Below, piece by piece: positions 1,877 through 58,284 of a DNA stretch of 64,000 bases. Below the pieces are notes generated by a model. That model had not been told where the DNA came from and made no database searches. It was given only the letters and a program-made list of their open reading frames with translations. The translations under genes and the position numbers were made by a program. The stretch lies in the sequence record OQ540978.1, one strand, 5' to 3'. The stretch is from Escherichia phage pEC-N1203-2Af.1. How positions within the stretch are numbered: position 1 is the stretch's first letter; every line of letters begins with the position of its first letter.

Positions 1877-2695
1877 ATGGAAGACGTTAAGCTCCCTGAA
1901 GTAGCTATAGTGGATGCTGACGTTCTTCGATATGAAGTGGGTGCTCTTACTCAGGAGCATCCCTTCCTTGACACAGGACGTGTTCCAGTTGATTACAATT
2001 TCATGATTGAACGACTTCAGTACAAGATAGATACTATCATAGCTCAATCAGGTTGCAGTAAGGTTGTATTCTACTTCAGCGAAGGTGGTAACTTCCGTTT
2101 CGATGTTGCTAAGCAGCAAGACTACAAGGCAAATAGACCTCCCGGAGAAAGGCCTTTTCACTGGCAAAATGTTGGCGATTACATTAAAGGTAAATATGAA
2201 TACATAGATGTATTTGGGAGAGAGGCTGATGATGCACTAGCTGAAAGGCAACGTAGGGATAAGAACACTATCATCTGTACTAGAGACAAGGATTTGTTGA
2301 TAACCCCCGGATGGCATTACCGTTGGGCTTGTGGAGAAAGGCAGAAAGAGGTTCCTCCTCACTATGTATCTGACTTAGTTTCATGGCAAAACTTCTTCTA
2401 TCAGATGTTGATTGGAGATGGTACAGATAATATCCCCGGATGTGGAGAACGTAAAGAAGTTATGTGGGGTGGTAAGCTCCAGCTTCGACGTCAAGGAATA
2501 GGGAAGAAAGCAGCAGCTAAGTTGTTGGCTGGTGTTACAGACAAGTGGACCATGTATCATATAGTACGAATGGAATATTATAAGAAGTTCGATACTGAAG
2601 ATGAAGAGAAGATGCTTGAGAATGCTCGGCTGCTCTTTGTTGGTCAGACTCCGGAAGACCTGTTCGACTGGACATGGTTAAACAAATCTTGGTAA
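1877..2695 (+). CDS. 5'-3' exonuclease / flap endonuclease (FEN, PIN-like)
   Basis: ORF 272 aa; acidic N-terminal site IVDADVLRY, ICTRDKDLL and GDGTDNIPG helix-hairpin-helix region typical of T7 gp6 / T5 D15-type exonucleases. Confidence 0.7.
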   Translation: MEDVKLPEVAIVDADVLRYEVGALTQEHPFLDTGRVPVDYNFMIERLQYKIDTIIAQSGCSKVVFYFSEGGNFRFDVAKQQDYKANRPPGERPFHWQNVGDYIKGKYEYIDVFGREADDALAERQRRDKNTIICTRDKDLLITPGWHYRWACGERQKEVPPHYVSDLVSWQNFFYQMLIGDGTDNIPGCGERKEVMWGGKLQLRRQGIGKKAAAKLLAGVTDKWTMYHIVRMEYYKKFDTEDEEKMLENARLLFVGQTPEDLFDWTWLNKSW

Positions 2696-2708
2696 TAAGG
2701 ATATTATA

Positions 2709-2886
2709 ATGGGTAAATTTGATTATCGTTCATATGATGAAAACTCCTCCAATCGTGAATCTCGTAAGGAGCAGCGCATTAAGTATAGCCATGAATTAGG
2801 AAGTCGCTATATTAAAGAAAAGCGTGAAAAAGTATCACATCGAGTAGGTAAGCGCGTATGGGAAGAAGCTGATTATGGCGAAGTCT
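2709..2886 (+). CDS. Small hypothetical protein (59 aa)
   Basis: Untracked short ORF MGKFDYRSYDE...; fills intergenic gap and overlaps next start. Confidence 0.3.
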
Positions 2887-3276
2887 GAGAAGACTAGATG
2901 CTCCGGCATGTGGACTGAGGCCCGTTATAATTCTTTCATCAAGTCAGGGATTCGTTCTCTGACTAGAAAGTGGAAGCCCATGTTCGATGCACTAGCAGAC
3001 GCCAAGACAGAGCAGAAGATTAATCCAAAGACAGGAAGACTGGCAATGCACTTTAAGTGTGCCATGTGTGGTTCTGACCACCCTGTAAAGGATATGGCTA
3101 TTGACCACATAGATCCTATAGTTCCTCTTGACCACGAAGCAACTTGGGATGAAATTATCTCTCGTGCTCTGTGTGAGAAAGAAGGTTTTCAGGTTCTGTG
3201 TAAAGACCCTTGTCATAAGATTAAAACAAAAGAAGAGAATGATGCAAGAAAACAATTCAAAAAAGGAAATGAGTGA
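2875..3276 (+). CDS. HNH endonuclease-like protein
   Basis: ORF 133 aa; CAMCG...DHIDPIV...CKDPCHKIK gives the Cys/His HNH zinc-finger pattern. Confidence 0.5.
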   Translation: MAKSEKTRCSGMWTEARYNSFIKSGIRSLTRKWKPMFDALADAKTEQKINPKTGRLAMHFKCAMCGSDHPVKDMAIDHIDPIVPLDHEATWDEIISRALCEKEGFQVLCKDPCHKIKTKEENDARKQFKKGNE

Positions 3277-45532: not shown

Positions 45533-45607
45533 GTCCCTATAGTTAAAAGGATATAACAGATTTCTTCTAAAAATCCATTCTAGGTTCGAGTCCTAGTGGG
45601 GACGCCA
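45533..45607 (+). tRNA. tRNA-Arg (anticodon UCU), CCA encoded
   Basis: Manual cloverleaf: acceptor GUCCCUA/UGGGGAC, D-stem GUUA/UAAC, anticodon stem GAUUU/AAAUC with loop CUUCUAA, T-arm CUAGG-UUCGAGU-CCUAG, discriminator G, CCA. Confidence 0.8.
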
Positions 45608-52816: not shown

Positions 52817-53434
52817 GTGAGCTTAGTAGCTGATTTTTCTCATTACTATAATGGTACATGGATTGCTAAACGAGCAGGTAATATCAACCTTCCGTGTTTT
52901 GTGATTGGTGTTGAGCAGAGCGGTAACTTCCGCAGCGATGACTTCTCTCACGAAGCAGAACAGGCTCTGTACTTTGTTGTAGAGCAGTGGTATAAGAACG
53001 AGCAAGGGCATCTTCGAAACACTACAATGAATATTCCAGTGTTCGACCCAACCTTGATTCTTGAATCACCTGACGTTGGTTATCTGTTCCATAATGGTAA
53101 CACTGTAAGCTGGACTCATATTAACCCTGTTCGTCAGAGAGCAAAGGGTTTAATGGGTAATAAGATTCGAAATGCTCCGGGTATTGGTCGTGCTATCTCC
53201 GGGGAGATGGTTTACAGCCTGTTCAATCCTGAATTCGAAGGATTGGTTACTCGTTATATTTACATCAACCCTACTGATGGTAAGGTGCATTATAAAGGTG
53301 CACTGGTAGGACAAGTAGATCTGGAAGCGCCTCGTGACTCTTACGGTCAGCAATCAATTCGACTTCTGGAACACTTTCATCACATTTCTGAAAACCTTAG
53401 CAATTATAATATTACGTTGGTGGATTCGTTATGA
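52817..53434 (+). CDS. Hypothetical protein (amidoligase island)
   Basis: ORF 205 aa; ATGA overlap into next gene. Confidence 0.5.
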   Translation: MSLVADFSHYYNGTWIAKRAGNINLPCFVIGVEQSGNFRSDDFSHEAEQALYFVVEQWYKNEQGHLRNTTMNIPVFDPTLILESPDVGYLFHNGNTVSWTHINPVRQRAKGLMGNKIRNAPGIGRAISGEMVYSLFNPEFEGLVTRYIYINPTDGKVHYKGALVGQVDLEAPRDSYGQQSIRLLEHFHHISENLSNYNITLVDSL

Positions 53435-54534
53435 CAACTGTAGCGCAAACTTTTGGATATCGAGAAGGTCATTTAACTGAGGCGCATAGTTCAATTGCAC
53501 TTCAGTGTGGTGTCGGTATCGAACTAGAACTCGAAGGTTCCGATCATATCGAAGCAGATATGTGGGATTGTACAGAGGATGGTTCCCTGCGTAATGGTTG
53601 TGAAATGGTATGTTCACGACCTTACAACGGACAGGAGTTGTTAGACGCTATCAACAACCTGAGTGAAGCAGTAGCTGAATCGCACGCCGAGGGGACTTGG
53701 CGTTGCTCTACTCACGTTCATATGGATATGAGGGATGCTGATAGTAATATCCTCAAGAAAACCATTCTCGCTTGGACCTTCTATGAAAAGATGTTGTTCA
53801 AGTGTTCAGGCTACCATCGTTACCGTAGCAACTTCTGCCCTGCTTTCGCAGTGGTACAAGCACAGGTAATGAATGCCTCTGACGCATTTAACTACGACGA
53901 TGAAGAGTTCTTCAACCGTCTGGTTCGTTCATGGGATAAATATACATCTCTGAACCTTCTGCCACTTGCCCAATACGGTTCGATCGAGTTCCGTATCAGT
54001 GAGCCTAAGTGGAAACGTGGTCAACTTCTCAATCTGGTTAACCGCTTCTTGATGTTGAAGAAGCTTGCATTAGATAACGCAGAGATGAGCAATGATCAGT
54101 TTATTGAGCATTTAAATACTGTACGATTTGCCCCAATGCTTCCTTACCTTCCTCTGGATTACAATCTGGACGAATCGGATTTGCATTCAGGTTATTGTAT
54201 GGCCCGTGATGTTTTGTATTGTCGTTCTCATGAAGTAGAACAGTCTGGTCGTATTCGTTTACGTCGAACCAACTCCAACGGAGAAGTTCTTGTTGACCTA
54301 CGTCATATCTCAGACTTCTACGGATTCCTTGGATATGTCCGAGGGAACGCTAACAACTTGTACCAAGAGATTCTGGTTATGCTTCGTACAACTGATCTAT
54401 CTACTGTACGATCTGCACCAGAGCAACGTATCCGTGCTATTTTTGACTTGCTACGTGAGTCAGGCCACAGTGATAACAACATCACAGGATACATTCCAGA
54501 TCATCTGGAAAATCAGTTAGAGCAAGTGCTGTAA
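53431..54534 (+). CDS. Glutamine-synthetase-like carboxylate-amine ligase (amidoligase) paralog B
   Basis: ORF 367 aa; GVGIELELEG...EDGSLRNGCEMV...STHVHMD motifs. Confidence 0.5.
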   Translation: MTTVAQTFGYREGHLTEAHSSIALQCGVGIELELEGSDHIEADMWDCTEDGSLRNGCEMVCSRPYNGQELLDAINNLSEAVAESHAEGTWRCSTHVHMDMRDADSNILKKTILAWTFYEKMLFKCSGYHRYRSNFCPAFAVVQAQVMNASDAFNYDDEEFFNRLVRSWDKYTSLNLLPLAQYGSIEFRISEPKWKRGQLLNLVNRFLMLKKLALDNAEMSNDQFIEHLNTVRFAPMLPYLPLDYNLDESDLHSGYCMARDVLYCRSHEVEQSGRIRLRRTNSNGEVLVDLRHISDFYGFLGYVRGNANNLYQEILVMLRTTDLSTVRSAPEQRIRAIFDLLRESGHSDNNITGYIPDHLENQLEQVL

Positions 54535-54613
54535 TCAATGGGTGCCTCTGACAAAGGGGCACAATTTAAAGGTTAATTAGATGAAAGGGTTTACCCTTCA
54601 GGTGGATTAGAAA

Positions 54614-56644
54614 ATTTGTGGCATCGTATTAGCTGGCGGTAATCTGTCAAGCACTGATTTAGACGTATTTAACCAACTCTTTTATGCTGGGGTATTCCGA
54701 GGTCAACATTCCTCTGGTATCTTTGGTCAGCGTAAGAGCACTAAGGAAGTCTTCACTTATAAAGAAGCCCTTCCTTCTTTCGCATTCATCCTCCAAGATG
54801 AGTACAAGAAGCACACCACTGGTGAAACAGCTTACACTGTAGCGCCTTCATGGATTGTTGGTCACAGCCGTCATGCAACGAAAGGTGCAGTTAACGCCAA
54901 GAACGCCCATCCTTTCCAACATGGTAACATCACTCTGGTTCATAACGGAACCTTGATGGACCAAGATCTGTTACCTGACAGTAAAAACTTCGAGGTAGAC
55001 AGTGAGAACATCTGCCACTCTATTAACACTATTGGTGCAGCAGAGACTATACAAAAGCTGGATGGCGCTTTCACCTTAATCTGGCATGATGCTTCTGATA
55101 ACCGTCTTCATATCATCCGTAATGAAGAGCGTCCTTTCCATCTCGCACGTTGTAACAGAGATTGGTTTGGTGCTTCTGAAGAAGATATGTTGATGTGGAT
55201 TCTGAAGCGTTCTAAGTCTCACAAGAACCGTATTGACGAGCACTTTGAATGTAAAGTTGGTACAGAATATATCTTTGATATGTCAAACAACAGCATGACT
55301 CTGGTTGAAGAGGTCGCCCACGAGCTTCCGGTTTTTACGGTAATCAATCGTTGGGGCAATTACTACTCGAACAACTACAGCCAAAGCAACTATCAAAGTT
55401 CCTCAAAAAGCAGTACAAGCAATCCTTACGACACGAAGCCGGGAGTGACAGCGGCAGACGTTCGTCGAAGAAACGCAGTGGTAAGTCAAAACAAAATCGC
55501 AAGCGATCGAAACATTGATATTCGCCGCGATATGACTGTGGAAATCACACCACATGAGTTTGTTCCTTATGCAACTGCTGGTGCTGTTCCTTCTCGTGGT
55601 AAGATGATTGGTTATATCTACGATGAGAAATCTCAAGAGTATATCGAAGGTGATGTTCATAACGTAGATATTAAGGCTTATCAGGATGCCCTGAAAGACC
55701 CTAAAATCGTTTACCGTGGGACAGTATCCTGCATCTCCGAAGTTAATGCTATGGTTCGTTTAGTGATCACAGCAGGTCGTTTTGTTGACCCATCTCTGGA
55801 GAAAAAGGAGCCTGAGTCTACTACTGCTGACTTTGATGATGATATCCCTTTTGACATGAATGATAGTTTCGTCAATAAGAATGGCGTTACTATCACTCGT
55901 AAATTCTGGGAAGCACACTCTCATGGTGATTGTGGTGGTTGTGACAAACACATTGATTGGAAGGATGCACCTAAAGCAGTCTTCGCATATCAGTGCTACT
56001 GGCACCCTGAATGTCTGGAAGGTTTGACTAAACCTAAAGATGAAGAAGAGGAGGAAACTCCTATTGGTGTTTGTGAAATCTGTGGTGAAGTTAAAACGGA
56101 GAATGAGTTCGATGAAGAGCTTAGTCGTCTTCGTGGTGAAGATATCTGTAAAGTCTGCGCTGTAGATGTAAAGAAGAAAGTATCTAATGCTACAATCAAA
56201 GATGGTTATGTCTGGATTAAAGCAACAGATACAACAAACGCCCGTCGTCCTGAATTTGCTTTACGTGTAACTGAAGATATGATCGGTCGTATGACTGTAT
56301 TACCTTCCTCAGCGAAACAGACAGGCATCACTCTGGAGGATGTTGTTGATGCTTATGTTGAGAAACGTAGCAACAGTATTTTTGCAATCTCAACTAAGCC
56401 AAAAAAGGAGGAACCTGCTGAGAAAGCAGGTGTGTTTCCTGAATCACGAACAGCTCTCCGCAAAACTGTTGTCAGCTTCGACGGAAACCGAAGCACTGAC
56501 TTCACCAAAGCCATGTGGTCAACCCTCGGATACTGCTCAGAGTGTTTTAAGCAGATTCCGTGGCGCGATGCTGAAAGTTGTACGCTTGGTTCTATGAATC
56601 AAGTTTATTGTAATTCTCCTAAATGTTCATTGAATAGAGGTTAA
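54614..56644 (+). CDS. Class-II (Ntn) glutamine amidotransferase domain protein with C-terminal zinc ribbons; non-canonical ATT start proposed
   Basis: Frame open from 54611; CGIVLAGG...SRHATKGAVNAKNAHPF...HNGTL is the GATase-2 N-terminus with nucleophile Cys directly after a candidate ATT start (SD GGTGGA 9 nt upstream); tracked ORF 54953-56644 is internal; C-terminal CxxC pairs. Confidence 0.55.
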   Translation: MCGIVLAGGNLSSTDLDVFNQLFYAGVFRGQHSSGIFGQRKSTKEVFTYKEALPSFAFILQDEYKKHTTGETAYTVAPSWIVGHSRHATKGAVNAKNAHPFQHGNITLVHNGTLMDQDLLPDSKNFEVDSENICHSINTIGAAETIQKLDGAFTLIWHDASDNRLHIIRNEERPFHLARCNRDWFGASEEDMLMWILKRSKSHKNRIDEHFECKVGTEYIFDMSNNSMTLVEEVAHELPVFTVINRWGNYYSNNYSQSNYQSSSKSSTSNPYDTKPGVTAADVRRRNAVVSQNKIASDRNIDIRRDMTVEITPHEFVPYATAGAVPSRGKMIGYIYDEKSQEYIEGDVHNVDIKAYQDALKDPKIVYRGTVSCISEVNAMVRLVITAGRFVDPSLEKKEPESTTADFDDDIPFDMNDSFVNKNGVTITRKFWEAHSHGDCGGCDKHIDWKDAPKAVFAYQCYWHPECLEGLTKPKDEEEEETPIGVCEICGEVKTENEFDEELSRLRGEDICKVCAVDVKKKVSNATIKDGYVWIKATDTTNARRPEFALRVTEDMIGRMTVLPSSAKQTGITLEDVVDAYVEKRSNSIFAISTKPKKEEPAEKAGVFPESRTALRKTVVSFDGNRSTDFTKAMWSTLGYCSECFKQIPWRDAESCTLGSMNQVYCNSPKCSLNRG

Positions 56645-56880: not shown

Positions 56881-57085
56881 GAAACCGAAGATCACTCTCC
56901 TACAGTATTACATAGGAGTTCATATCGAATTAGTAACGGAGCAGCGAAAGCTGTATCCGTTCGCTTTCGGTCTAATTGATGCACCATCCGATGAAGTAGA
57001 GAACGACGCGTTCAACGACTACTTCGAAATTGAAGCTCAGATTCAAAAAACTCGTAACGAAATTCTTAAACTTAAAGGTATCTAA
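56861..57085 (+). CDS. Small hypothetical protein
   Basis: ORF 74 aa. Confidence 0.4.
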   Translation: MSNLVPKKPKITLLQYYIGVHIELVTEQRKLYPFAFGLIDAPSDEVENDAFNDYFEIEAQIQKTRNEILKLKGI

Positions 57086-57087
57086 CA

Positions 57088-58284
57088 ATGACTACTCGTA
57101 TCCGTGTTCTTCCTTATGGCCCTTCTGATTCAGTTCGTGAACTTACTTCTGCAATTAACACTAAGATTCAGGAACTTCGCTTAAATGCTAACGTAATGTC
57201 TCTGGTATCAGAGGGTTCTCGTTATCGTTCTCGTGCTGGTGATATTGTTGTAAACTATGGCAACCGTCGTTATGATGCTTCTTTCTTTGGTGGTGCAACT
57301 GTACTGAATACCGTTGAAGCTCTGAACCGAGCAGCTAATAAAGTTGCAGCATTTAACGCACTGCGTTTAGCTGAAGTCAAAACTGTTGAATACACCATCG
57401 ATCGTGAAGTAGCTCAGAACTGGAACCGGAATGAAATTGTTTATGAACGTGGAACCTTAACTGGTCACTCTGGAGAAGGTATTACTGTTCGTCTTACGAG
57501 AGAAGGTGTTGCGGAAGCTCCTCTGTATACCAAAGGAATCCAAGGCCCACGTCGTGAATGGCGTGTTCATGTGTTTGAGGGTGTTATCACTTACGTTCAG
57601 AAGAAGATTCGTCGTAATGGTTATCGTGAACTGGAAAGTTATCGTGAAGATATTCGTAACCATCACACTGGTTGGGTTTATTCTAACTCCTTCACTGAAG
57701 CGCCTCCTGATCAAGTTCTTATTCAAGCTCACAAAGCTGTATCTGCTCTGGGTTTGAACTTCGGTGCTGTTGACCTGATTAGCAAAGGTACTAACGCATG
57801 GGTTCTGGAAGTTAATACAGCTCCGGGCCTGACTGGCACAACTCTGGAAACCTACACTCACAACATCGTTGAGTTTGTTAAGAGCTTCTCTGGTGTTGAG
57901 CCTGACTACCGTGTTGCTTACGAACTGCCTGTTGAAGAAGTGGAAGAAGAATTTGCTGAATCGGCAGATGATGAGAACTTTGCATTGGCAGCTGAGCCAG
58001 TTGCTGAAGAGTCTTCGGAACCTGTTCCTGAAACAATGCAAGTTGAAGAGCAAGGGTTAGAGATCAACCCTGTAACCCGTCGTACTTTACGTCGTGGCTA
58101 TTATATCGCTAACATCAAGCACCCTGAGAACGGTTCAACTGTAGCAAGTAACGTAATCGTTTTCTTCTGTGGTCGTAATTTCTACCGCTCTGGCTGGAAC
58201 GCACCGATTAGCGATCATCAGCTTGGTCGTGTGTTACAGATTAATAGCCTTACCCTGAATGATGGTACTGTTGTAAACTACTAA
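57088..58284 (+). CDS. ATP-grasp family ligase (RimK/glutathione-synthetase-like)
   Basis: ORF 398 aa; central region with ATP-grasp pattern (...GAVDLISKGTNAWVLEVNTAPGL...); acidic linker then C-terminal domain. Confidence 0.6.
   Translation: MTTRIRVLPYGPSDSVRELTSAINTKIQELRLNANVMSLVSEGSRYRSRAGDIVVNYGNRRYDASFFGGATVLNTVEALNRAANKVAAFNALRLAEVKTVEYTIDREVAQNWNRNEIVYERGTLTGHSGEGITVRLTREGVAEAPLYTKGIQGPRREWRVHVFEGVITYVQKKIRRNGYRELESYREDIRNHHTGWVYSNSFTEAPPDQVLIQAHKAVSALGLNFGAVDLISKGTNAWVLEVNTAPGLTGTTLETYTHNIVEFVKSFSGVEPDYRVAYELPVEEVEEEFAESADDENFALAAEPVAEESSEPVPETMQVEEQGLEINPVTRRTLRRGYYIANIKHPENGSTVASNVIVFFCGRNFYRSGWNAPISDHQLGRVLQINSLTLNDGTVVNY

Follow-up and report, generated by a model that had tools for sequence, protein, structure and literature searches.

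Two genes of Escherichia coli, infC (coding for translation initiation factor 3, IF3) and pcnB, are initiated at AUU. Annotated AUU, AUC, AUA and CUG make up 0.004–0.024% of bacterial start codons, E. coli has two AUU genes, and initiation at AUU is repressed by IF3 (PMC5499595). The locus described here lies in a stretch of 64,000 nucleotides (the window, to which all positions refer) from Escherichia phage pEC-N1203-2Af.1 (OQ540978.1). It carries the gene of a predicted class-II, N-terminal nucleophile (Ntn) glutamine amidotransferase, which is very probably translated from AUU at 54614..54616 (+ strand). As in infC and pcnB, a conserved AUU (or AUC) stands behind a Shine-Dalgarno sequence (SD) and would be read by initiator tRNA. 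As in infC, the AUU occupies the start position of the relatives, is conserved, has an SD at working distance (7 nt in the phage gene) and has no canonical alternative. The AUU of infC senses the autoregulatory loop of its own product; no such loop is evident in the phage gene. Unlike in infC and pcnB, the phage start must immediately precede a Cys codon, and its AUU appears to arrive with a mobile element.

Free-standing homing endonuclease genes of T-even phages (seg, mob; 'intronless homing') likewise stand as HNH genes between conserved genes. Phage homing endonuclease loci are characterized by co-conversion of flanks, hairpins next to ribosome-binding sites and, in some cases, translational coupling to neighbours (PMC2988022). 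For T4, cleavage is described at distances of hundreds to thousands of bp from the gene of the enzyme, whereas in the present family the break is exactly at the neighbour's start codon, ATG being replaced by ATT or ATC. PurF of Bacillus subtilis belongs to the same superfamily as the phage enzyme and has the same need for a free N-terminal Cys. In phages phiEco32 and SU10 the same gene is known as phi32_83 / SU10_085 'glutamine amidotransferase' (phiEco32 gp83 / SU10 gp85; 96–98% nucleotide identity, no gene-level difference). The ATT start of this gene is not new, given that it is already annotated as start of the coding sequence (CDS) in the GenBank records of phiEco32 (EU330206) and SU10 (KM044272). 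What appears to be new is that ATT/ATC starts recur, that they are associated with insertions of homing endonuclease genes, and that the leader is invariant.

All elements of the start region named in the initial annotation were found where it had placed them, with the translation MKGFTLQVD*KICGIV. A small open reading frame (mini-ORF) at 54581..54610 (+), read from the sequence, has nine codons and a stop in frame with the amidotransferase (ATG AAA GGG TTT ACC CTT CAG GTG GAT TAG; ATG at 54581–83). Its own SD is weak (AAAGG at 54568–72). The in-frame TAG (54608..54610, +) stands two codons before the start codon, and AAA at 54611–13 separates it from ATT. No canonical in-frame start is present between this TAG and the Cys codon, AAA and ATT being the only codons there; the next one after the Cys is TTG/ATG at codon 113 (54953/54956). 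The SD is AGGTGGA (54600..54606, +), with a duplex energy of −5.9 kcal/mol against the anti-SD. A spacing of 9 nt had been given for GGTGGA; it is right for AGGTG (54600–04), while GGTGGA (54601–06) ends 7 nt before ATT. The middle base of the SD varies: GGCGGA in Aeromonas phage BUCT695, GGAGGA in the homologous loci L113, L117 and L124. ATT is taken as the initiation codon on position, conservation and coding evidence, and the following TGT (54617..54619, +) codes for the putative catalytic N-terminal Cys of the Ntn domain.

The full amidotransferase CDS (54614..56644, +) comprises 676 codons; its product has 76.1 kDa when the initiator Met is counted, and 675 residues would be left after maturation. 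It matches Pfam GATase_6 (55.1 bits, cut-off 27) and GATase_7 (27.4 bits, cut-off 25), and phrog_4736 with E = 3.5e-202. A profile search of the PDB matched GlmS (1.6e-10), PurF, GFAT1 and AsnB; a single-sequence phmmer search of the PDB gave no matches. Position 1 (Cys) of the family profile aligns with the catalytic Cys of human GFAT1, residue 1/2; the Cys corresponds to position 2 of the PHROG profile. C1-G2 is invariant across ten diverse homologues (alignment A2), as are the R-x-A-T motif, the H-N-G oxyanion hole and the D-S glutamine-binding motif (R85, A87, T88, H109, N110, G111, D128, S129). Cys-Gly stands straight after the start codon in every homologue examined. Judged from its sequence, the protein is a class-II (Ntn) glutamine amidotransferase, for which glutaminase activity and the four-layer alpha-beta-beta-alpha Ntn fold are predicted. 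Codons 1–112 are under strong purifying selection, with a ratio of nonsynonymous to synonymous substitution (dN/dS) of 0.05–0.11, and between genera differ at 54–67 third positions against 10–21 at each of the first and second positions (e.g. 65 vs 21 and 13). Because of this low dN/dS and the third-position excess, codons 1–112 are regarded as translated in the amidotransferase frame, so that the internal starts annotated in many records would be ruled out.

Relatives in phages of Vibrio, Proteus, Salmonella, Aeromonas, Pseudoalteromonas and Pseudomonas have ATG before the same Cys. ATT occupies the start-codon position, since ATG-TGT stands there in the nearest outgroups and in the greater part of the family. 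In 78 homologous IMG/VR loci, aligned from residue 1 with two alignment offsets corrected, the codon before Cys is ATG (62), ATT (12, five of them from the Kuravirus group, to which the window phage belongs), ATC (3) or TTG (1). The IMG/VR sample consists of 80 of 284 matches, and the family sample overall of about 100 loci; ATT/ATC precedes Cys in 21 of the 83 unique sequences sampled. Further cases are Klebsiella phage Klyazma (L017, OP125547; ATC), metagenomic L113 and L117 (ATT), and L124 (ATT). Klyazma (Cys codon at locus position 401) reads ATC-TGT behind GGAGGA, without a canonical in-frame start. Of 14 ATT/ATC loci checked, among them three copies of the identical Kuravirus-group leader, 13 are free of canonical start codons from the preceding in-frame stop to the Cys. 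Neighbour joining places the ATT clade of the Kuravirus group within ATG lineages, and the other ATT/ATC cases are dispersed among ATG relatives; because of this scatter, ATT/ATC probably had several origins, and at least two. ATT/ATC genes have a stronger mean SD than ATG genes (−7.7 vs −6.1 kcal/mol, p = 2.5e-4, uncorrected for phylogeny), often GGAGGA with −9 to −11 kcal/mol. A hairpin lies directly 5′ of the SD in 10 of 11 non-Kuravirus ATT/ATC loci (by inspection). The proposal that translation from ATT makes the Cys residue 1 is thus supported by start position, motifs, dN/dS and recurrence in independent lineages.

In the favoured mechanism, initiator formylmethionyl-tRNA would read the near-cognate AUU, positioned by AGGUGGA 7 nt upstream. 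Met-Cys N-termini lose Met, as in E. coli PurF and GlmS. Deformylase and methionine aminopeptidase would in the same way free Cys1, which serves as nucleophile in the Ntn glutaminase domain, and the mature N-terminal peptide expected after AUU initiation and Met removal is CGIVLAGGNLSSTDLDVFNQLFYAGVFR. The in-frame UAG two codons upstream would stop any N-terminally extended, hence inactive, product. The weak start codon may lower expression or make it IF3-sensitive.

The start codon is part of an invariant block at 54566..54621 (+), comprising leader, mini-ORF, SD, TAG, ATT, TGT and GG. A four-way alignment of the genera Kuravirus, Suseptimavirus and Nieuwekanaalvirus (6.5 kb, 58.5% identical overall) has no longer invariant run than this one: it spans 56 nt without substitution, and the runner-up 24 nt. 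The chance of such a run is about 1e-9 by arithmetic that assumes independent columns. Leader and ATT are unchanged in all close relatives, in IMG/VR and metagenome contigs of the Kuravirus group, and in the approximately 77% identical Suseptimavirus (SU7, ECBP2, PAS59) and Nieuwekanaalvirus (KBNP1711). ATT was present in 98 of 98 matching phage records, and a query with the ATG version never scored above 73/74; ATT is not a sequencing error, because the same ATT occurs in all 98. Selection rather than recent transfer appears to account for the 56-nt invariance, since synonymous sites between the genera are near saturation (proportion of differing synonymous sites, pS, 0.6–0.8) and identity outside the block falls to background within about 20 nt. 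A direct repeat ATTAGA (54576–54581 and 54606–54611) brackets 24 nt, which comprise the SD, the hairpin and the greater part of the mini-ORF; an insertion or deletion may have left this repeat behind.

Of 21 unique ATT/ATC sequences, 7 have an HNH gene directly upstream, and of 61 unique ATG sequences none (Fisher p = 3e-5), as surveyed by phmmer with HNH proteins against all upstream ORFs on both strands. The seven loci are L017 (Klyazma), L066, L079, L084, L086, L113 and L117. Endonucleases of L017, L066, L079 and L086 carry HNH_3 and zf-His_Me_endon, those of L084 and L117 HNH_3 and AP2; that of L113 matches PHROG 'HNH endonuclease' (1.4e-63). L113 and L117 are 95–100% identical to L115 over the 420 nt after the Cys codon, and all similarity breaks off exactly at the start codon. 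L115, which has no endonuclease, reads AAGGAGTTTGAATA-ATG-TGT-GGA-ATT; L113 and L117, with two different endonuclease genes, both read GCAGGAGGATTAGAAA-ATT-TGT-GGA-ATC. These relatives of the window thus differ from L115 by ATG to ATT and by a silent ATT to ATC at Ile4. This pattern suggests that ATT/ATC starts are brought in along with homing endonuclease genes that insert immediately before them.

The junction in the window, CAGGTGGATTAGAAA-ATT-TGT-GG, is nearly equal to that of L113/L117, including the in-frame TAG-AAA-ATT, and the proteins are only 35–36% identical. The arrangement G-GAT-TAG-AAA-ATT-TGT is common to the window, L113/L117 and L124, a third lineage. The wider module (C/A)AGG(A/T)GGATTAGAAA-ATT-TGTGG is shared by the window and distant phage lineages, in which it forms the right-hand junction of inserted HNH genes. 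BUCT695 (Grimontviridae) has a Kuravirus-type leader, approximately 91% identical, before an amidotransferase N-domain that is 51% identical in protein; in its 280-nt upstream spacer lies part of an HNH gene from the same family, its frame broken (tblastn E = 8e-8 to 1e-5). The account somewhat favoured here is that the ATT + SD + TAG module entered an ancestor with an endonuclease cassette, the endonuclease being lost later in the E. coli phages. The cassette would have been inserted at the gene start in place of the native SD-ATG; its endonuclease gene would have decayed, as is visible in BUCT695, leaving leader and ATT. The TAA of a TTTAAA(T/G)G motif in BUCT695 is the stop of the decayed endonuclease frame.

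A tentative and rather unlikely extension of the cassette account is that the HNH endonucleases recognise the highly conserved ATG-TGT-GGN-AT (Met-Cys-Gly-Ile) and that the inserting cassettes bring a ribosome-binding site and ATT/ATC as an immunity allele, because this is the sole type of change at the codon that keeps the protein functional. The Kuraviruses would then keep ATT as reversion to ATG would restore a cleavable site, and the 56-nt leader would be an operator that makes AUU initiation efficient or regulated. A limited literature search found no description of a start codon as endonuclease junction or target, or as immunity polymorphism.

Several points weigh against AUU initiation at an endonuclease-derived start. 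IF3 discriminates against AUU (PMC5499595). The Kuravirus SD is merely average (−5.9 kcal/mol), and expression could be low. A plain SD-AUU region leaves the full 56-nt invariance unexplained (folding z −0.1). The endonuclease association comes from about 100 sampled loci and is not phylogenetically corrected. No endonuclease remnant was detected by tblastn in the window or in six further ATT/ATC lineages, and the leader has no ORF of at least 20 residues; the sole HNH gene seen in a Kuravirus (YF01) is downstream of the amidotransferase, outside the leader. Because no endonuclease gene or remnant adjoins its start, the window is at most an endonuclease-free descendant allele and not a member of the homing endonuclease loci. 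Remnants were likewise not found in SU7, KBNP1711, the outgroups L023/L024/L026, L061, L071, L075, L078, L082, L090, L095 and L124. Detection of the SU10 protein by proteomics with 9 peptides (PMC4281155) is indirect support for AUU initiation; its listed 63.7–63.8 kDa is the computed mass of the truncated 562-residue model and uninformative on the N-terminus. These proteomics data were considered as N-terminal evidence and set aside, the tabulated mass being that of the truncated model and the supplements listing no peptides. In YF01 (L118) the HNH gene occupies 2649–3155, between the amidotransferase and the next small gene; endonucleases are active in the cluster.

Termination-reinitiation is a sub-mechanism of AUU initiation and not an alternative to it: ribosomes would translate the mini-ORF, melt its hairpin, stop at UAG 54608 and restart 3 nt on at AUU, the mini-ORF being required and the leader hence conserved. 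It is possible, if on the unlikely side. The mini-ORF stop, 3 nt from AUU, falls inside the re-initiation window of about seven codons that is described for bacteria (Adhin and van Duin, cited in PMC2988022). In their scanning model the upstream ORF likewise stops a few nucleotides before the start and contains the SD; unlike there, the ORF here is only nine codons long, its SD is weak, its translation is putative, and such an ORF is lacking in some ATT/ATC homologues. BUCT695, the sole variant leader by which conservation of the mini-ORF can be judged, keeps its start, length and stop; with one variant sequence only, this retention could be chance. The AAAGG of the mini-ORF becomes AAATG in BUCT695, by which its SD is lost, and the mini-ORF AUG lies within the hairpin stem. 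Both substitutions inside the BUCT695 mini-ORF alter the peptide (MKGLTLQAD; F to L, V to A), and because the peptide changes it is unlikely to matter. Among other ATT/ATC loci, the L113 endonuclease ORF ends at the same TAG, the L075 upstream gene ends at −7 and short ORFs end at −7 in L061 and L086, whereas no ORF ends near the start in L066, L082, L084, L095 and L124. That a stop right after the SD is the end of an upstream ORF was considered as a general rule and rejected, being true for some loci only. L086 (IMG/VR 3300002220_000423) has an unrelated nine-codon mini-ORF that ends 4 nt before ATT at 598 (TGA at −7) and is preceded by a hairpin and an intact HNH gene.

The hairpin of the mini-ORF (UGAA-GGG UUUA CCC-UUCA; 54582..54600, +) abuts the SD and has a predicted free energy of −6.1 kcal/mol (z −0.8). 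The repeat AAGGGT/ACCCTT reported in the initial annotation is real, but the perfect hairpin drawn from it, with a 2-nt loop, is not feasible. In the folded form 54582–85 pairs with 54597–600 and 54587–89 with 54594–96, giving a 7-bp bulged stem with a UUUA loop; in BUCT695 the stem is kept and the loop is UUAA. The window contains 112 perfect inverted repeats with 6-bp arms vs 77–88 in shuffles. The hairpin alone is within chance expectation, because inverted repeats of that size are common in the window.

A rather unlikely alternative to the favoured AUU reading of the leader is that the 56-nt block, with ATT as one part of it, primarily serves another role: as an operator bound by a translational regulator (an RNA-binding protein of phage or host), as a leader that senses a metabolite or IF3, or as a site acting at the level of DNA. 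It would account for zero substitutions in 56 nt despite a pS of 0.6–0.8 between genera; the fall of flank identity to background within about 20 nt argues against recent co-conversion, and the motif is unique in the window, by which a repeated element was rejected. An Rfam scan of 54300–54900 gave sub-threshold chance matches only (astro_FSE, E = 0.14; TLS-PK6, E = 1.3). Folding is unexceptional, and the outer stem is lost in BUCT695. Stable RNA structure was tried as the cause of the invariance and rejected, with z-scores of −0.1 to −1.0 and an outer stem that is not conserved. A promoter and terminator scan found nothing on the + strand, sigma-70 promoters included; the leader lacks the motif tAATGTAtA of phiEco32 gp36 promoters, and no overlapping ORF of at least 20 residues lies in the block. 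An antisense sigma-70-like match at 54650–54623 (−) with TTGACA, a 16-nt spacer and TACGAT (10/12) is probably chance, its −35 region not being conserved in SU7 or KBNP1711; such a site in non-conserved sequence does not favour a regulatory block. A bound regulator as reason for the leader invariance is a live possibility.

The initial annotation had offered, beside the ATT start, that the TAG is read through and a propeptide removed as in B. subtilis PurF. The propeptide of that enzyme has 11 residues. Starting at ATG 54581, UAG read-through would give a 12-residue propeptide here; the mini-ORF is in frame and of near the same length, and low-level natural UAG read-through is compatible with the sequence. 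The route is very improbable. The PurF propeptide is uninterrupted in frame, whereas here the TAG stands between mini-ORF and Cys, and the sole tRNA gene of the window is tRNA-Arg (anticodon TCT, 45533–45607), with no suppressor or special initiator tRNA. The SD is correctly placed for AUU, in the other ATT/ATC lineages stops occur in frame and an upstream ATG is missing, L124 and L117 share TAG-AAA-ATT without a real in-frame ORF ending there, and the mini-ORF peptide is not conserved in BUCT695.

Deposited records disagree on the start. It is annotated at 54956 in NJ01 and Paul, at 54692 in SR02 and YF01, at Met10 in SU7, ECBP2 and PAS59, at Val45 in KBNP1711 and at Met11 in BUCT695; the deposited CDS of Klyazma opens at Val17, 51 nt past ATC, and several further records have a CDS overlapping the leader. 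All downstream annotated starts inspected remove 9 to 113 residues and with them the catalytic Cys, which is lost from most annotations because gene callers disallow ATT/ATC. These internal annotated starts are what could favour a truncated or degraded gene with a true start at the internal TTG/ATG (54953/54956) or later and a dead glutaminase remnant in the upstream 340 nt, which is hardly credible given the dN/dS of 0.05–0.11 and strong third-position bias over codons 1–112, the intact catalytic motifs, the frame without stop codon and the explanation of the discordant starts by callers that do not allow ATT. In the phiEco32 and SU10 literature searched, start codon, leader and endonuclease link are not discussed, and a search for literature on ATT starts in phages found nothing relevant.

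The truncated model is carried by most deposited genomes of these therapeutic-candidate coliphages, by Klyazma, by BUCT695 and by several metagenomic phages; functional or structural work on it would begin from a dead enzyme. With more than 12 AUU/AUC initiation regions beside ATG sister alleles, the family is a natural series useful for the study of near-cognate initiation in bacteria. If the endonuclease link is true, a selfish element rewrites its neighbour's start codon and level of expression, and a concrete route is given by which non-canonical start codons may arise and persist.

The window phage is a phiEco32-like Kuravirus (subfamily Gordonclarkvirinae); the 2.4 kb around the locus are 96–98% identical to phiEco32-like coliphages, including NJ01, SU10, Paul and phiEco32. 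The amidotransferase lies within an early-gene cluster with a COOH-NH2 ligase, an amidoligase and an ATP-grasp enzyme (PMC4281155); cluster neighbours match the Pfam families Amidoligase_2, COOH-NH2_lig ('phage phiEco32-like') and ATP-grasp. The upstream gene (53431..54534, +) is the amidoligase, homologue of phi32_84 (Pfam Amidoligase_2, E = 3.8e-8; annotated in relatives); its stop TAA is at 54532–34, and the spacer to ATT is 79 nt. Right behind the stop, this spacer contains a GC-rich predicted hairpin without U-tract (54542..54562, +; stem GUGCCUCU / AGGGGCAC, loop GACAA). Its stem is kept by compensatory changes in SU7/ECBP2 (GCGCUCU / AGGGCGC), another loop is present in KBNP1711, and a terminator scan did not call it. 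Conceivable roles are weak termination, RNA processing or stabilisation of the mRNA. The TTTAAA(T/G)G motif (54565–54572 in the window) follows a GC hairpin there and in L010, L011, L012, L015, L023 and L026; it stands about 25 nt before ATG in Grimontviridae-type relatives and about 50 nt before ATT in the window. The Kuravirus leader looks about 30 nt longer than that of these relatives.

The C-terminal two-thirds of the amidotransferase (residues ~230–675, ~55300–56641) have no Pfam match; Cys-x2-Cys pairs there (e.g. CGGCDKH...CYWHPEC, CEICGE...CKVC, CSEC...C...C) suggest zinc-ribbon-like modules. The second-longest invariant runs of the four-genus alignment, 57087–57110 (24 nt) and 57056–57072 (17 nt), lie where the ATP-grasp gene begins (ATG 57088); a further initiation region under constraint may be located there.

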